Part shown: one piece after another, positions 1 to 5,338 of the stretch | Position numbering within the stretch: the stretch's first letter is position 1 | How the letters are laid out: each line of letters starts with the position of its first letter | Position numbers and translations under genes: made by a program | Assembly: GCA_964645535.1 (NCBI GenBank) | Contig: CAZYCQ010000033.1 | Coordinates: 25,002 to 38,462 of the forward strand | Reading direction: 5' to 3' | DNA from: an uncultured archaeon | GTDB lineage: Archaea > Asgardarchaeota > Heimdallarchaeia > Heimdallarchaeales > Kariarchaeaceae | DNA: 13,461 nt | Notes under the pieces: generated by a model | Seen by the model: the letters and a program-made list of their open reading frames with translations, nothing else | What the model was told of the DNA's origin: nothing | Databases searched by the model: none

Positions 1-1275
1 TATCCCTTGACCTCAATGGTATGGCAAGAAGTCTGGGGTGCCATCGAAAGTGAATATCCCTATCGTCCTCTGGTTGTCTGGAATCATATGGGTAATCCAA
101 ACTATTCCATTCCTGGTTCCAAGAAAGTACAAGAAGTCATCGAAATGCCTGCAAAGGATGGCAATGGCTATCAGCTCCCACTCTTCATTTCCGTGGATGT
201 GGTCATGGGTGAGGCTTCTGCGTATGCAGATTATATCCTCCCAGACGTTACCTTCTATGAAAGGTTTGGAACTCCACATGTTGCTTCATCCATCTTGACA
301 AAGGCCTCTGGTGTCAGGCAACCAATTTTCGGTGAATTTGACCCTGAAACTGGGGAATATAATTACCGTCCACTTCCTGGTTACGAGAACTGCAAGATGG
401 CTGAAGATATCTATATCGAGCTTGCACGTAGGATGAAGGAGGTTCATAATGTTCCACTTGATGGTGTGGGTGAGGACGCGTTTGGTCCTGGAGAGCATTT
501 GAATAATGCATGGGATTGGTACAAACGTGCATTCCAAAACTTGGTTGAAGACTACGAACTCAATACCGGACCAATCCCTGGAGACACCATAAATGAAAAG
601 ATCAAATATATGCTTGATCGTGGTGGTCTCTTTGAGGACTATTCCGCCTATGAAACCTCTGGAAACTTCCAGCCTCATACCCTGAAGAAAATCTGCAATA
701 TCTGGATTGAGAAGGTCGCAACCAAGACCCATCCCTTCACTGGAGAGAAATTCTGGGGTACGGCCATCTATGAACCCATCAAAGATCTTGCAGGCAACAA
801 TGTCATTGAGGAAGACAAAACCGACTATCCATTCCGCATGATCACCTACAAACTTCCAATTCACACTCAGTCGAGGACTGCCAACAATCCGGTTCTTGTT
901 GAACTATTGCCAAAGAATGCCTTGGAGATCAACACCAAGGATGCAGAGGCATTGGGTCTGAAGACGGGTGACTGGGTCAATGTCTCATCCAAGACCCACC
1001 CTGAAGGAATGGATGTGCAGGTCTATGTTACCAACCTAGTGAGACCTGGTGTAGTCATGTTTGCCCACTCTTTTGGTCACAGCCATTATGGTGCAGCCGG
1101 TTGGAAGGAAGGAGACAAGGAAATCAAAGGAGATCCAAAGAAAGGCACCGGTTTCAACCTCAATGGTATCATGAGACTAGACACCACTTATGAGGATGGT
1201 CAAATCTGTTTGACTGATCCCATCGGTGGAAGTGCTGTCTTCTATGACACCATGGTAAAAATCACCAAAAAATAG
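1..1275 (+). CDS. ttrA: Molybdopterin oxidoreductase catalytic subunit, tetrathionate reductase subunit A-like (5'-truncated by the window edge)
   Basis: Frame is open from base 1, so the TTG at 7 is not the true start. DMSO-reductase-family motifs: MGNPNYSIPG, LPLFISVDVVMGEASAYADYILPD..FYE. C-terminal molydopterin-binding domain: YPFRMITYK..HTQSRT, EINTKDAEALGLKTGDWV, VRPGVV. HSFGH..YGA and LTDPIGGSAVFYDT.VKI resemble the TtrA subfamily. Substrate is not provable from this fragment. Confidence 0.8.
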   Translation, partial: YPLTSMVWQEVWGAIESEYPYRPLVVWNHMGNPNYSIPGSKKVQEVIEMPAKDGNGYQLPLFISVDVVMGEASAYADYILPDVTFYERFGTPHVASSILTKASGVRQPIFGEFDPETGEYNYRPLPGYENCKMAEDIYIELARRMKEVHNVPLDGVGEDAFGPGEHLNNAWDWYKRAFQNLVEDYELNTGPIPGDTINEKIKYMLDRGGLFEDYSAYETSGNFQPHTLKKICNIWIEKVATKTHPFTGEKFWGTAIYEPIKDLAGNNVIEEDKTDYPFRMITYKLPIHTQSRTANNPVLVELLPKNALEINTKDAEALGLKTGDWVNVSSKTHPEGMDVQVYVTNLVRPGVVMFAHSFGHSHYGAAGWKEGDKEIKGDPKKGTGFNLNGIMRLDTTYEDGQICLTDPIGGSAVFYDTMVKITKK

Positions 1276-1459: not shown

Positions 1460-1744
1460 ATGACAGTCGGACCTACTGAGCTTTTTCTGATCCTTGGAGC
1501 CGCGCTTCTTTTATTCGGTCCTAATCGTCTCCCAGAACTGGCGAGATCACTTGGTCAGGCAACAAGGCAATACAAAATGGGATTGAGGGAAGTCAAGAAG
1601 GATCTCATGGCCGAAGCATCTGAGCTTACAAAGCCAATGACTGAAGAGGATGAACTCATCCTCACTGCCAAATCCCTCAACATTCCCACAGAAGGCAGAA
1701 GTATTGAAGAAATTGCTGAAGATATTTTAGCACAACAGTCATAG
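1460..1744 (+). CDS. tatA: Twin-arginine translocase TatA/E subunit
   Basis: MTVGPTELFLILGAALLLFGPNRLPELARSLGQA gives TM + FG hinge + amphipathic helix. Tail AKSLNIPTEGRSIEEI resembles archaeal TatA tails. Start moved from TTG 1415 to ATG 1460. Lies 13 nt upstream of tatC. Confidence 0.95.
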   Translation: MTVGPTELFLILGAALLLFGPNRLPELARSLGQATRQYKMGLREVKKDLMAEASELTKPMTEEDELILTAKSLNIPTEGRSIEEIAEDILAQQS

Positions 1745-1757
1745 TAAGGGATTCCTG

Positions 1758-2651
1758 ATGATGTCTGGATATGATCCAACAGTCACTCAACGGATTTATT
1801 CCAGAGCAGTGTATGAAAGGGGTTATGCGGGTTCTTCCATGGACTACTTAGTTGAATTGGTTATCAGGCTTCGACGAGTTTATGCAAGCATCTTTCTTAG
1901 TGCTATTTTCATCTTCTTCATTCCTGAACGTTTTTTGGATGGTGAATACACATTACAGGACTATTCTCCCGGCATTTACCGTATCATGATGACTATCTTG
2001 CAGACATCTGTGGAAATGATGCTGAAGACCAATGTTCAGATCATTGTTTCTTCTCCTTTGACCACCATCTCAATTGGTGCACAAGTAGCCTTGATACTTG
2101 CGTTCGTTCTCAATATCCCTTTCCTGCTTTGGAATATTTATCAATTCGCAGCTCCTGGACTATATGTCCATGAAAGAAGAATCTTGAGGGAGGCTATGGT
2201 CGTTTTGGCAGGTTTGTTTTTCCTTGGCTCTGCCATTGCCTATTTCATTGTCACTCCGACCACGCTCAATGTGCTCACTGTCATAAGTTCCCCTCTGATC
2301 AATTATGGAAATGGCGAAGTGCCTTTGGCTCTGTTTTTTACTCTGGAATCCATATATTCCATCATCATTTGGACTGTTTTTTCGGCTGGACTACTTTACA
2401 TGATCCCCGGAGTAATCTACATTCTTGTTGTAATGGAAATTATTGACCCCGATTATCTTGTAAAAAACCGAAAAAGCGTTATCCTTGCAGTATTGACATT
2501 TGCCGCGGTGATTACACCGGATCCAACTATGGTCAGCATGCTTGTCCTTTCTGGACCTCTTTTGGTTGTGTACGAAGCGACAATTCAGATGGGGTATCGA
2601 AACAGATTCAGCAGAAAATTACATACCAGTAACGTTTGGAGGCAATTATAA
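1758..2651 (+). CDS. tatC: Twin-arginine translocase TatC subunit
   Basis: About six TM segments. Motifs LVEL..RL, IYQFAAPGLYVHERR and FAAVITPDPTMVSMLVLSGPLLVVYE. Adjacent to tatA. Confidence 0.95.
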   Translation: MMSGYDPTVTQRIYSRAVYERGYAGSSMDYLVELVIRLRRVYASIFLSAIFIFFIPERFLDGEYTLQDYSPGIYRIMMTILQTSVEMMLKTNVQIIVSSPLTTISIGAQVALILAFVLNIPFLLWNIYQFAAPGLYVHERRILREAMVVLAGLFFLGSAIAYFIVTPTTLNVLTVISSPLINYGNGEVPLALFFTLESIYSIIIWTVFSAGLLYMIPGVIYILVVMEIIDPDYLVKNRKSVILAVLTFAAVITPDPTMVSMLVLSGPLLVVYEATIQMGYRNRFSRKLHTSNVWRQL

Positions 2652-3983
2652 ATGGCAGTCGACCCAATTCAACTTTCCAGATCTTTTCAATCTTCTTGGA
2701 CTCTTTTGATGATAGCTGTGTTGTTGCCAGCTTATCTTTACCGAGAGAATATTCGATCCAGAAAAGAAGCTTTGAAGTACATTAGTGTTATCCTTGCTTA
2801 TTTTCTCTTAGGCTATCTCATGCAGATATACTATGATCAGCTTCTGCTTACTGCTGCCCAGTTCGAAATAATCCTTTTCATGGGTGGTATAATGCTTGCA
2901 GCCTTTATCTTCCCGAAGTATCTTGACCTTTTCGAGCTCAATTTCGAACAGGGGTTCCGACTCAATGCAAATGGTGCTTATATGGTATTGCTCAATACCC
3001 TAAAGGCACTGAGGGCAAAAATTCTGCTTGAAAAACCCTCTCGTGAAATCATCTCCTTATTCAAAGGCTCTTATGGCATGGATTTTCTTCTAGAGATCGC
3101 AATAATCTCTGATTCATCCACCACGGCACGATTAAAGACGCATGTTTCTGGAAACACACTGACACGTTTTCGTGCCTTATTTGTACTGGCATCCTACTCC
3201 CCAATATTCGCCTTCGCAAACCAAACCTTCGAACTTGAGGTTCCATTGATTGGGTTCCGATATAACTCTGAAATTGGTTTCTTTGTTGTCTGGTTCCTCT
3301 ATATCATGTTTGATTTCCTCATGGTCAATGTTAACCGGAATTTCATTTATCTGATTGAAGAAACACAAAAGGAACAGATGCTTCTCCTTGCTAAAAAAGC
3401 AACAGAAAGGAAGCAACCGGTTTCCTTGAAAAAACCTGATGTCACAGTCAATATAGACCGAGCCAAATCCAAAGCAGAAGAAATCAAGAAACGGTCGGAA
3501 CAGATCAAGCAACGGCAATTGAAAGAGGAAATCGAAAAGAAACGCCAAAAATTGAGAAGTCGGGTCAAAGGGGTAATGGGTGAAGATGAGGAACAGGTTG
3601 AAATTGATCCTGAGATTCTGAAACAGAAAATACTTATTGAAAAAACAAAAACCGTTCTAAAGTCCACTCCAATCTTTCGAGAAGTCACCATTCAAGACAT
3701 CGCAAAAAAGGTGGGTGAGGATGATATCGAAAAGGTCGAACGGGTGGTCATTGGGCTTATCAACAATAAGGAAGTCAATGGGTTCTACGATATCTGGGAT
3801 CAACGTTACCTTCCCGGAGATACCAATGCAAGGTATATCGAAAAAACACTGAATCAAATGGACCTTTCTCCTTCCGATTTGGAATTCATCCGACTGACCA
3901 GAGGGGGAGACGTTGAAATTCGTTTCAGGCACAATGGAGAAATCAGGACTTCATCTGAAACCAAGGAGGTAAAGAACAAATGA
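2652..3983 (+). CDS. Hypothetical polytopic membrane protein with coiled coil and C-terminal PCI-like winged-helix domain
   Basis: 443-aa ORF that abuts tatC and overlaps the next gene (ATGA). About 5 hydrophobic segments in residues 15-228 and a K/E/R/Q-rich coiled coil at about 235-310. FREVTIQDIAKKVGEDDIEKVERVVIGLINNKEVNGFYD fits the PCI winged-helix pattern. The CDS is secure; the domain call is inference. Confidence 0.75.
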   Translation: MAVDPIQLSRSFQSSWTLLMIAVLLPAYLYRENIRSRKEALKYISVILAYFLLGYLMQIYYDQLLLTAAQFEIILFMGGIMLAAFIFPKYLDLFELNFEQGFRLNANGAYMVLLNTLKALRAKILLEKPSREIISLFKGSYGMDFLLEIAIISDSSTTARLKTHVSGNTLTRFRALFVLASYSPIFAFANQTFELEVPLIGFRYNSEIGFFVVWFLYIMFDFLMVNVNRNFIYLIEETQKEQMLLLAKKATERKQPVSLKKPDVTVNIDRAKSKAEEIKKRSEQIKQRQLKEEIEKKRQKLRSRVKGVMGEDEEQVEIDPEILKQKILIEKTKTVLKSTPIFREVTIQDIAKKVGEDDIEKVERVVIGLINNKEVNGFYDIWDQRYLPGDTNARYIEKTLNQMDLSPSDLEFIRLTRGGDVEIRFRHNGEIRTSSETKEVKNK

Positions 3984-4588
3984 GTTACGGGAATTCAATT
4001 GAGATTATCCCTGAAGCACAATTCCTCAATTTTCTTGGACAGTTTCTGATCGCAGATAAACCAGACAGGCAAATGGTTGAAGGGATCGCTACGATTTCAA
4101 GGCATGTTGATATTCCGGAATTTTTAGAGCTCTCTGAAATCGCAGAAAAAATCCTGAAAGATGAGAAAATGTGGAAACGATTTGAAAATATCCACAATCA
4201 TCATTTCCTGATACCGGCTGGCTGTGCAATTCCCCTTTTCTCATCCCAGCTCTATTTTTCAAGGATCAAACCTGACTTCTACAATAACTATCTCCATTCA
4301 CTTGGTTTGAATTTCAAGCAGGAAGGACGAAAATTTCCGGATCATATCGGAAATGAACTGATTTTGTTGTCAATCATCCTGTCCATGGCGGTGACTGACA
4401 ACTCCAAATCTGTTGCAAAGTTGGGTCGTGAAATGCTTCGAAAATTTTTCATTCCCCATTTGGATCCCATTTCAATGAGAATTTCTAATTGCGACTGCGA
4501 TGATCCCGTAAACCTTTACAAACCTCTCTTCAAATGTATCAAGATTCTCTACGAAGAAGCAAAGGATATCCTTGCCAAAATCAATTAA
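3980..4588 (+). CDS. TorD/DmsD-family redox enzyme maturation chaperone
   Basis: 202 aa, helical. FPDHIGNEL matches the E(P)xDHxxxEL motif in degenerate form, IPLFSSQLY corresponds to the PxxSxY motif, and FFIPHL is near the C-terminus. Context is a molybdoenzyme plus Tat. Confidence 0.8.
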   Translation: MSYGNSIEIIPEAQFLNFLGQFLIADKPDRQMVEGIATISRHVDIPEFLELSEIAEKILKDEKMWKRFENIHNHHFLIPAGCAIPLFSSQLYFSRIKPDFYNNYLHSLGLNFKQEGRKFPDHIGNELILLSIILSMAVTDNSKSVAKLGREMLRKFFIPHLDPISMRISNCDCDDPVNLYKPLFKCIKILYEEAKDILAKIN

Positions 4589-4645: not shown

Positions 4646-5338
4646 GTGAACAGAATAACTCTCATTTTTGATGAAATTTTTGGGTTGGAAGATCATCGGC
4701 ACTATCATGTCAGAACATATGCCATTTTTGTAACATTCTTTTTCATTCTTTCTTCACTCCTTGCAATGCTTCTTTTTCCTGGATATTCAATTTCAGAAGA
4801 TTTCTTGAGTACCTTGGGAACTCATAAGGCCCGTTATCCTTTTATCTTCAACATATCTACTGTTCTTACCGCAATCCTTCTTATTCCGACCTACATTTCC
4901 ATTAACCGGATTCTACAAAGGAATGTTCCCAAAAATCATGATTTCTTCTTAAAAATGTCAATTGCTTTGGGTTTATTCAGTTCCTTTTCCTTAGCAGGTG
5001 TTGGCCTGTTTCCAGCAGAAGGAGAGACATTTCAAGCTCACACTTTGTCTGCTCTTTCCTTCTTTTTGGCGATAGGTCTATATTACTTAGTGGTCAGCTA
5101 TCTCATTATCCGAATTCTAATTGAATGTCATGATTTTAGATCCTTCCTGACCCCCTTTGATTATTTCGGATTTACCTTCGTGATTCTTGTTCTGGTTCTG
5201 ATGGACATTTCAGCATGGTATAGCCGCCTTCTACAAAAGTTTATCGTGTATAGTGCATTAATATTCTTGGTTTACATGACTTCAAAAGTTCATCGTGTTG
5301 ATCATTTAAACCAAATGATTCATGGTCTACATGAATAG
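4646..5338 (+). CDS. DUF998-like integral membrane protein
   Basis: About 6 TM segments with the pattern PGYS...FLSTLG...IFN...GVGLFP...H...A..FF, typical of DUF998/Frag1-like proteins. Confidence 0.7.
   Translation: MNRITLIFDEIFGLEDHRHYHVRTYAIFVTFFFILSSLLAMLLFPGYSISEDFLSTLGTHKARYPFIFNISTVLTAILLIPTYISINRILQRNVPKNHDFFLKMSIALGLFSSFSLAGVGLFPAEGETFQAHTLSALSFFLAIGLYYLVVSYLIIRILIECHDFRSFLTPFDYFGFTFVILVLVLMDISAWYSRLLQKFIVYSALIFLVYMTSKVHRVDHLNQMIHGLHE

Follow-up and report, generated by a model that had tools for sequence, protein, structure and literature searches.

A membrane protein of unassigned family encoded within a tat gene cluster

In a stretch of 13,461 nucleotides from an 89%-complete Heimdallarchaeota metagenome-assembled genome (G000:C33:25002-38462; hereafter the window), a gene for a 443-residue membrane protein lies between tatC of the pathway for twin-arginine translocation (Tat) and a gene resembling those of the TorD chaperone family. 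This protein, which we call X, has no Pfam or NCBIfam family except for a sub-threshold match to the PCI model, and the Tat systems known so far consist entirely of TatC and members of the TatA/B family. What, then, is such a protein doing in a tat gene cluster? From the relatives of X, their genomic surroundings and the modelled structure of the protein, we arrived at the view, held with slightly more belief than doubt, that X is a component restricted to this lineage and dedicated to export by TatA-TatC in Heimdallarchaeia, serving as a Tat-associated membrane subunit or docking factor.

The junctions of the cluster are tight. The four genes are all located on the + strand, downstream of a TtrA-like molybdopterin oxidoreductase gene. 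tatA (1460..1744, from ATG 1460 to TAG 1744; 94 aa; Pfam PF02416, TatA_B_E, 1.4e-14) is separated by a spacer of 13 nt from tatC (1758..2651; 297 aa; Pfam PF00902, 7.1e-39, 134 bits, above threshold), whose TAA is followed directly, with a gap of 0 nt, by the ATG of X at 2652. X (2652..3983) ends in a TGA that overlaps ATG 3980 of the TorD-like gene as ATGA. The direct junction with tatC and the overlap with the TorD-like gene both support a dedicated role for X. A preliminary description of the locus had reported this gene order and these junctions exactly, and had noted that no tatB is present. We found none in the window either, and the whole genome contains only two TatA-family genes; the absence of tatB is normal for archaeal TatAC systems. 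One gene caller started X at Met20 (P0007, 424 aa); we place the start at 2652 because the residues upstream of Met20 are conserved. The sequencing runs listed as carrying this sequence are all DNA runs from a single hot-spring metagenome study, which is probably where the window comes from; there is no RNA run among them.

X is inherited together with tatA and tatC

The X family is tiny: when 1.84 billion cluster representatives were searched with a profile, only 31 proteins matched, and none of the relatives carries a Pfam family or a name. In the literature on Tat in Asgard archaea and Heimdallarchaeota and on Tat accessory components, we found no description of the protein. The remark of the preliminary description that no Tat component of this architecture had been described therefore stands, there being no Pfam or NCBIfam family, no name in the source records and no paper.

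We read 14 loci (the window, its paralog on contig C32, L005-L007, L008-L017 with L009/L010 and L011/L012 each counted as one, and G070), and in all 14 of them tatA and/or tatC was located within 1 kb of X. The order tatA-tatC-X is found in the window, the C32 paralog, L005-L009, L011 and L016. Other arrangements are X-tatC (L015), tatC-mobA-like-tatA-X (L013), tatC-(moaD, moaE)-X (L014, in which a truncated open reading frame (ORF) at the contig end is TatC) and tatA-X (L017 and G070, where tatC is 14 kb off among tungsten and molybdenum (W/Mo) genes). The tat genes are thus the constant neighbours of X, while the others vary among TtrA-type Mo-enzyme genes, DOMON-FeS-NrfD genes (FeS, iron-sulphur) and genes for Mo/W cofactor synthesis and transport. 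TorD-like genes accompany only the molybdoenzyme-type modules, one of three subtypes; of the synteny with tatAC and torD that the preliminary description had proposed to check, the part concerning tatA and tatC held throughout, and the part concerning TorD is not a family trait. Because tatA and tatC remain constant while enzyme and cofactor genes change, a dedicated membrane component of the Tat pathway is the most economical explanation of these neighbourhoods.

The window's genome contains exactly two tatA, two tatC and two X genes, one of each per module. The second module (G000:C32; L003:5982-12349, minus strand) has the order tatA-tatC-X'-DOMON-4Fe-4S-NrfD, with a TRRTMVK signal in the 4Fe-4S protein. 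X' (445 aa) follows the second tatA-tatC pair directly and is about 17-20% identical to X of the window. The same tatA-tatC-X'-DOMON-FeS-NrfD module, hereafter type 2, is conserved in L006, L007, L011 and L016. Among 400 Asgard genomes, TatC was detected in 20 and X in 12, and 12 of the 12 X genomes have TatC. X and tatC are equal in copy number wherever tatC is assembled whole. The only TatC-positive genome of the class without X has just a TatC fragment carrying an internal stop, and no genome of the class without tatC has X. Neither homologs unlinked to tat genes nor homologs in Tat-less genomes were found, both of which the preliminary description had named as evidence that would speak against its proposal of a Tat-linked factor.

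The neighbouring enzymes raise the alternative that X acts outside the translocase as a maturation or assembly factor for exported redox complexes, delivering cofactors, holding apo-enzymes or assembling FeS, NrfD and Mo subunits, and that it is linked to tat only via the enzymes that both serve. Mo/W genes do adjoin X, including moaA with an ABC transporter gene, moaE/moaD, a MobA-like NTP_transf_3 gene and a gene for a ModA-like binding protein; NrfD/FeS complexes are adjacent in most X modules, and in the window the TorD-like gene overlaps X. However, the type-2 modules have their own X paralog without having a molybdoenzyme, the invariant neighbour of X is tatA/tatC and not any single enzyme or cofactor gene, and the copy numbers of X and TatC match. 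We consider a maturation factor unlikely, although it is the strongest competitor of a dedicated Tat component.

Divergence of X parallels that of TatC. The pairwise identity matrices of the two proteins correlate with r = 0.95 over 12 modules and resolve the same three subtypes; X evolves faster than TatC, and its three subtypes are only 17-25% identical. A branch with support 95/92 in a TatC tree separates the 12 X-linked TatCs from five non-X Asgard TatCs. The association between X and tat has survived duplication, rearrangement and deep divergence, and X is tied tightly to the tat genes by its adjacency to them, by co-occurrence, by equal copy numbers and by divergence in parallel. Since all X carriers belong to one class, one might suppose that X is an unrelated membrane protein that stays beside tat genes only through inheritance within a narrow clade. 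This is the least probable of the explanations that we considered, given that the link has outlasted changes in gene order as well as duplication into such divergent subtypes, and that X is absent from each class genome without tatC.

X combines a five-helix membrane domain with a cytoplasmic winged helix

The preliminary description had assigned to X about five transmembrane segments and a long charged coiled coil, and both were confirmed, the segments as a feature conserved in the family. Family-mean hydropathy and positive-inside counts define a membrane domain at residues 1-230 (2652..3341, + strand, as are all features of X) with five conserved transmembrane segments (TM1 to TM5) at about residues 15-29, 42-59, 69-88, 172-190 and 207-228. 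The K+R counts of the successive loops (0.6/2.9/0.6/9.9/0.4/3.0) indicate an N-out, C-in topology; the C-terminus of X is cytoplasmic, which the preliminary description had proposed to check. The N-out orientation also fits the relative P0030 (660 aa, L013:6001-7983), as it has a signal peptide and an extracellular-side Lamin-tail domain (PF00932, 6e-13) ahead of TM1. We considered P0030 as a TatC-X fusion and excluded this, its extra part consisting of the signal peptide and the Lamin-tail domain. P0027 is a variant of X with a shorter N-terminal extension.

Three further parts of X face the cytoplasm. TM3 and TM4 are separated by an alpha/beta insert some 80 residues long (92-170; 2925..3161), which forms the K+R-rich loop; AlphaFold2 (AF2) modelled it as beta-alpha-beta4 with a pLDDT of about 60-70, and it had no match in Pfam or ESM Atlas searches. 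The membrane domain is followed by a charged helix or coiled coil of about 90 residues (230-320; 3339..3611), 45% of which are K, R, D or E, and for this part the AF2 model has helices 206-252 and 268-308. The chain then enters a PCI-like winged helix (residues 320-390; 3609..3821) and ends in an extension of one helix and a beta-hairpin (residues 391-425; 3822..3926; model elements H80-91, E99-104 and E110-114; pLDDT 64-75) in which G419 and E422 are conserved.

The full-length model of X was poor (pLDDT 54.6). By contrast, modelling of residues 312-443 with a 33-sequence alignment yielded a winged helix with a pLDDT of 93-96, followed by the helix and beta-hairpin. The winged helix is also the most conserved part of the family: T339-P340, G377, Y379 and W382 are invariant and E363, L369, I381 and Y386 nearly so, and these residues lie mainly in the wing. 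In a profile search of the PDB with whole X, the best match was the ATP synthase b stalk at a non-significant E of 0.45, and ESM Atlas gave no usable feature match for X, the structural rows having TM-scores below 0.3 by query. A complex prediction for TatC with X residues 1-250 scored 0.00 and 0.01, which is evidence neither for nor against their association.

The winged helix is PCI-like and acidic

PCI domains scaffold the proteasome lid, the COP9 signalosome (CSN) and eIF3, and the preliminary description had recognised a PCI winged-helix pattern at residues ~342-387 of X. The PCI model PF01399 matched X with an E of 0.0021 and 18.7 bits, under the cut-off of 22, and matched 6 of 33 family members at E <= 0.01; with 1.9e-4 as the best value, this is at best a borderline result. 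Weak matches to the same model also turn up in 6 control genomes out of 14, for example that of E. coli. The window's genome has nine PCI-model matches in all, eight of them outside X and three above the Pfam cut-off.

When the modelled winged helix was searched against the PDB by Foldseek, CSN2 came top (3.8e-4) and bacterial regulators began at 1.2e-2; the top ~37 matches were nearly all CSN (CSN2, CSN3), Rpn, eIF3, PCID2 or DDRGK1/UFL1 structures. CSN2 was also the best superposition in the VIA search (Z 9.8, root-mean-square deviation 1.8 A, 68 residues, 21% identity), and further matches were Z-alpha (8.7), ScpB (8.7), UFL1 (8.6), Rpn (8.5) and CSN3 (8.2). Many regulator winged helices (IclR, MarR, GntR, Fur, BirA) scored Z 7-8, leaving PCI a margin of about 1 over ordinary winged helices. 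The predicted model has the H1-b1-H2-H3-b2-b3 arrangement of the Rpn/CSN/eIF3-like subdomain. Unlike PCI proteins, however, X is embedded in the membrane, the model has no helical-repeat (TPR-like) subdomain, its place before the winged helix being taken by a single long helix from the charged coil, and no PCI or MPN gene occurs in the X neighbourhoods read. A PDB profile search with the C-terminal part of X gave no significant match (S-layer protein, E 0.15; CSN3, E 0.6). On the predicted model, the winged helix is nearest to PCI winged helices, is not a full PCI domain and is not cleanly separable from generic winged helices. The proposed pattern thus falls inside a confident winged helix whose top folds are PCI proteins, which upholds the fold, while the sub-threshold Pfam score, the missing helical repeats and the small Z margin tell against a PCI domain proper.

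In a second alternative, raised in the preliminary description as the routing of rejected molybdoenzyme to degradation, X is a Tat quality-control adaptor whose PCI/DDRGK-like winged helix would recruit a Cdc48 unfoldase, a small heat-shock protein (sHsp) and the proteasome against rejected or stalled substrates. Its nearest folds are indeed the PCI subunits of the proteasome lid and CSN together with DDRGK1/UFL1. DDRGK1 (UFBP1) is the endoplasmic reticulum-membrane adaptor of the UFM1 ligase UFL1; it consists of a membrane anchor, a charged helix and a PCI-like winged helix and acts at the translocon. X follows the same logic of anchor, charged helix and C-terminal winged helix, and DDRGK1/UFL1 structures were among its matches (8c0d_B, E 6.7e-3; 8qfc, 8ohd and 8b9x, Z 7.1-8.6). 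The type-2 module has a divergent Cdc48 gene at its side in four genomes, and in the two that were tested an Hsp20-like gene lies between the module and this gene. Furthermore, according to one paper, DDRGK1 and UFL1 seem to be of Asgard archaeal origin (PMC10183829). On the other hand, X differs from DDRGK1 in having five transmembrane segments instead of one, in being tied to Tat and not to the Sec61 translocon, and in involving no UFM1 system. The DDRGK model PF09756 did not match X at E <= 1 or any family member at E <= 0.01, and the genome's best DDRGK match (14.6 bits) is elsewhere. Neither the type-1 and type-3 modules nor L011 have the Cdc48/Hsp20 neighbours, X has no linked MPN or proteasome gene, and its structure favours PCI over generic winged helices only marginally. 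Overall, we find a quality-control adaptor improbable. A bolder proposal, that X is the obligatory third subunit of a new TatA-TatC-X translocase class, recruits Cdc48, sHsp or the proteasome through its winged helix and represents a prokaryotic forerunner of DDRGK1/UFL1-type translocon surveillance, seems to us less probable still.

No DNA-binding domain is commoner in prokaryotes than the winged helix, and a third alternative is that X is a membrane-tethered transcription regulator that senses the state of the membrane or of Tat and controls the tat and respiratory operon. The fold would be typical of such a regulator, the Z scores of regulator winged helices come near those of PCI proteins, and one regulator per operon would also yield matching copy numbers. 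However, across 33 members the winged-helix core has a net charge of -2.7, and helix 3, the presumed recognition helix, has a net charge of -2.5 and a pI of 4.4; the family has no basic recognition helix or wing for contact with DNA. Moreover, the invariant residues are in the wing and the STP turn and not in helix 3, and the charged helix keeps the winged helix at a distance of about 90 residues from the membrane. Because the winged helix is acidic, protein binding is favoured over DNA binding, and we give a regulator even less credence than the bolder translocase proposal. The identity check that the preliminary description had set for the C-terminal domain therefore returned a winged-helix fold that is acidic and not DNA-binding-like, with only a small margin between PCI and generic winged helices.

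TatA and TatC in X-containing modules

In TatC, Glu139, which is part of an HERR motif, is invariant and Glu33 nearly so. We take these residues to be the equivalents of Glu103 and Glu15 of E. coli TatC, which bind the twin-arginine (RR) motif of signal peptides. Since TatC has retained its putative RR-binding glutamates, X is best viewed as an addition to the Tat system and not as a replacement for part of it. RR signals are present in both complexes of the window's genome, the TtrA-like enzyme and the DOMON-FeS-NrfD complex.

The TatA C-terminus contains the motif LIxxAKxxGIPTEGRSIExIAxDIL (window 1634-1741), which is unusual among TatA tails and is shared with other Asgard TatA proteins. 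We considered the GIPTEGRSIExIAxDIL motif as a partner of X and rejected it, as it is equally present in TatA of X-less Asgard genomes (E 1e-13 to 9e-7). A word-based search with the TatA tail matched only near-identical proteins.

Separately, type-2 TatCs were found to share a conserved cytoplasmic N-terminal extension of ~50 residues (yVPxWMxEGxxTAxAL...FVxEFLxExKK; L003:11009-12040 (-), L006:6268-7290, L007:6312-7352, L011:4976-5998 and L016:4930-5949) that is absent from type-1 and type-3 TatCs.

A candidate docking factor of the Tat pathway

If X is a dedicated Tat component, its five-helix domain would sit in the membrane beside TatC and TatA, and the ~90-residue charged helix would hold the acidic PCI-like winged helix out into the cytoplasm, where it would serve as a module for protein-protein docking or assembly. 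The winged helix might receive folded, cofactor-loaded twin-arginine substrates, alone or together with a chaperone; another option is that it oligomerises or otherwise organises the translocase. We infer the physical association of X with TatAC, as well as a binding partner for the winged helix, from genomic coupling and domain architecture.

Two known systems offer comparisons for this proposal. TatB, like X, is encoded in tat operons beside tatC, is membrane-anchored and has a long charged cytoplasmic helix, and both are candidate partners of TatC on the cytoplasmic, substrate-receiving side. X resembles TatA/B/E proteins in being encoded with tatC and limited to Tat genomes. In contrast to TatB, it has no TatA_B_E domain in Pfam and is not a PF02416 family member, it has five transmembrane segments instead of one, and only X carries the insert and the winged helix. 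TorD/DmsD-type maturation has the same genomic setting as X, in which a Mo-enzyme and a TorD-like gene accompany the tat genes. The same hand-over step might involve X, although X is a membrane protein of unrelated fold.

Several observations weigh against X as a dedicated Tat component. It occurs in four families only, all from a single archaeal class, so its conserved synteny is partly inherited and not independently maintained. The mirror-tree signal follows from linkage alone, the pairs not being independent. TatC genomes of four other Asgard families (f12, f24, f32, f33) have no X; TatAC works without X elsewhere, and X is therefore no general mechanistic requirement. In addition, X does not resemble TatA/B (probability 1% when the X and local TatA families were compared by hhalign), the membrane-domain model is of low confidence (pLDDT about 40-55), and the recurrence of Mo/W-cofactor genes near X fits a maturation role too.

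If the proposal is correct, X would represent a novel type of Tat component, namely a third, unrelated and strictly co-inherited membrane protein, and could reveal by what means folded substrates that carry cofactors are received, or inspected, at the membrane. It would also equip a prokaryotic export machine with a PCI-like winged helix, a module otherwise known from scaffolds of eukaryotes (proteasome lid, CSN, eIF3, DDRGK1/UFL1), in an archaeal class that is regarded as closest to eukaryotes.

Neighbouring genes and additional observations

The TtrA-like gene, whose 3' part occupies 1..1275 (+) of the window (NCBIfam TtrA, 1.8e-42; Pfam Molydop_binding, 6.3e-14), starts upstream of it. The full gene (ORF L004:8371-11277; 968 aa) encodes Molybdopterin, Fe4S4 and Molydop_binding domains as well as the N-terminal twin-arginine signal KRRVFMKG, and the protein is a Tat substrate. 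Genes for 4Fe-4S and NrfD subunits precede it, also upstream of the window.

The gene that overlaps the end of X (3980..4588, +; 202 aa) probably encodes a divergent TorD/DmsD-family (Nitrate_red_del) chaperone-like protein. The family assignment made in the preliminary description is tentative, as the match of the protein to PF02613 stays sub-threshold at 19.4 bits against a cut-off of 22.2; it recurs, however, in 4 of 4 relatives (best 7.5e-5). The protein contains the motif FPDHIGNEL, which corresponds to the TorD-family signature, and a PDB profile search with it returned nothing. In L009, the TorD-like homolog is placed between the Mo-enzyme gene and tatA. Directly after the TorD-like gene in the window, on the same strand, is a gene for a multi-pass membrane protein of the DUF998 family (4646-5338; 6.4e-9).

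The type-2 module has the look of an extracellular electron-transfer complex that is exported by Tat, is linked to quinol and contains no molybdoenzyme. Beside it, in four genomes, a Cdc48-type AAA ATPase gene and an ORF of ~205-214 aa are oriented divergently (L003:12553-15419 (+), L016:1619-4437 (-), L006:2891-5758 (-) and L007:2882-5735 (-)). Two of the ORFs, from the window's own genome and from L016, were searched with Pfam, and both match Hsp20; the pair is absent in L011. These neighbours possibly reflect a link to proteostasis or merely inherited synteny.

We also asked whether other Asgard lineages have a shorter relative of X. Multi-transmembrane ORFs of 273 and 278 aa beside tatA in families f24 and f32 (L032:5395-6216 (-) and L034:8025-8861 (-)) were rejected as candidates, being unlike X and unlike each other. 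They have no Pfam family, and in G286 the ORF is placed between tatA and tatC.

Elsewhere in the window's genome, PCI-model matches were located at G000:C11:40396-40590, C53:15982-16143, C112:968-1117 and C1:57319-58230, one of them in a 1670-aa ORF. C1 also has a 731-aa ORF with weak matches to both DDRGK and PCI, possibly a UFL1/DDRGK1-like gene. Finally, in G070 (family f5; L022:8320-12738 and L023:1914-5902) the tat genes are located inside a tungsten/molybdenum island that comprises tatA-X-moaA, ABC transporter genes, an aldehyde:ferredoxin oxidoreductase gene, a gene for a ModA/WtpA-like binding protein and tatC.

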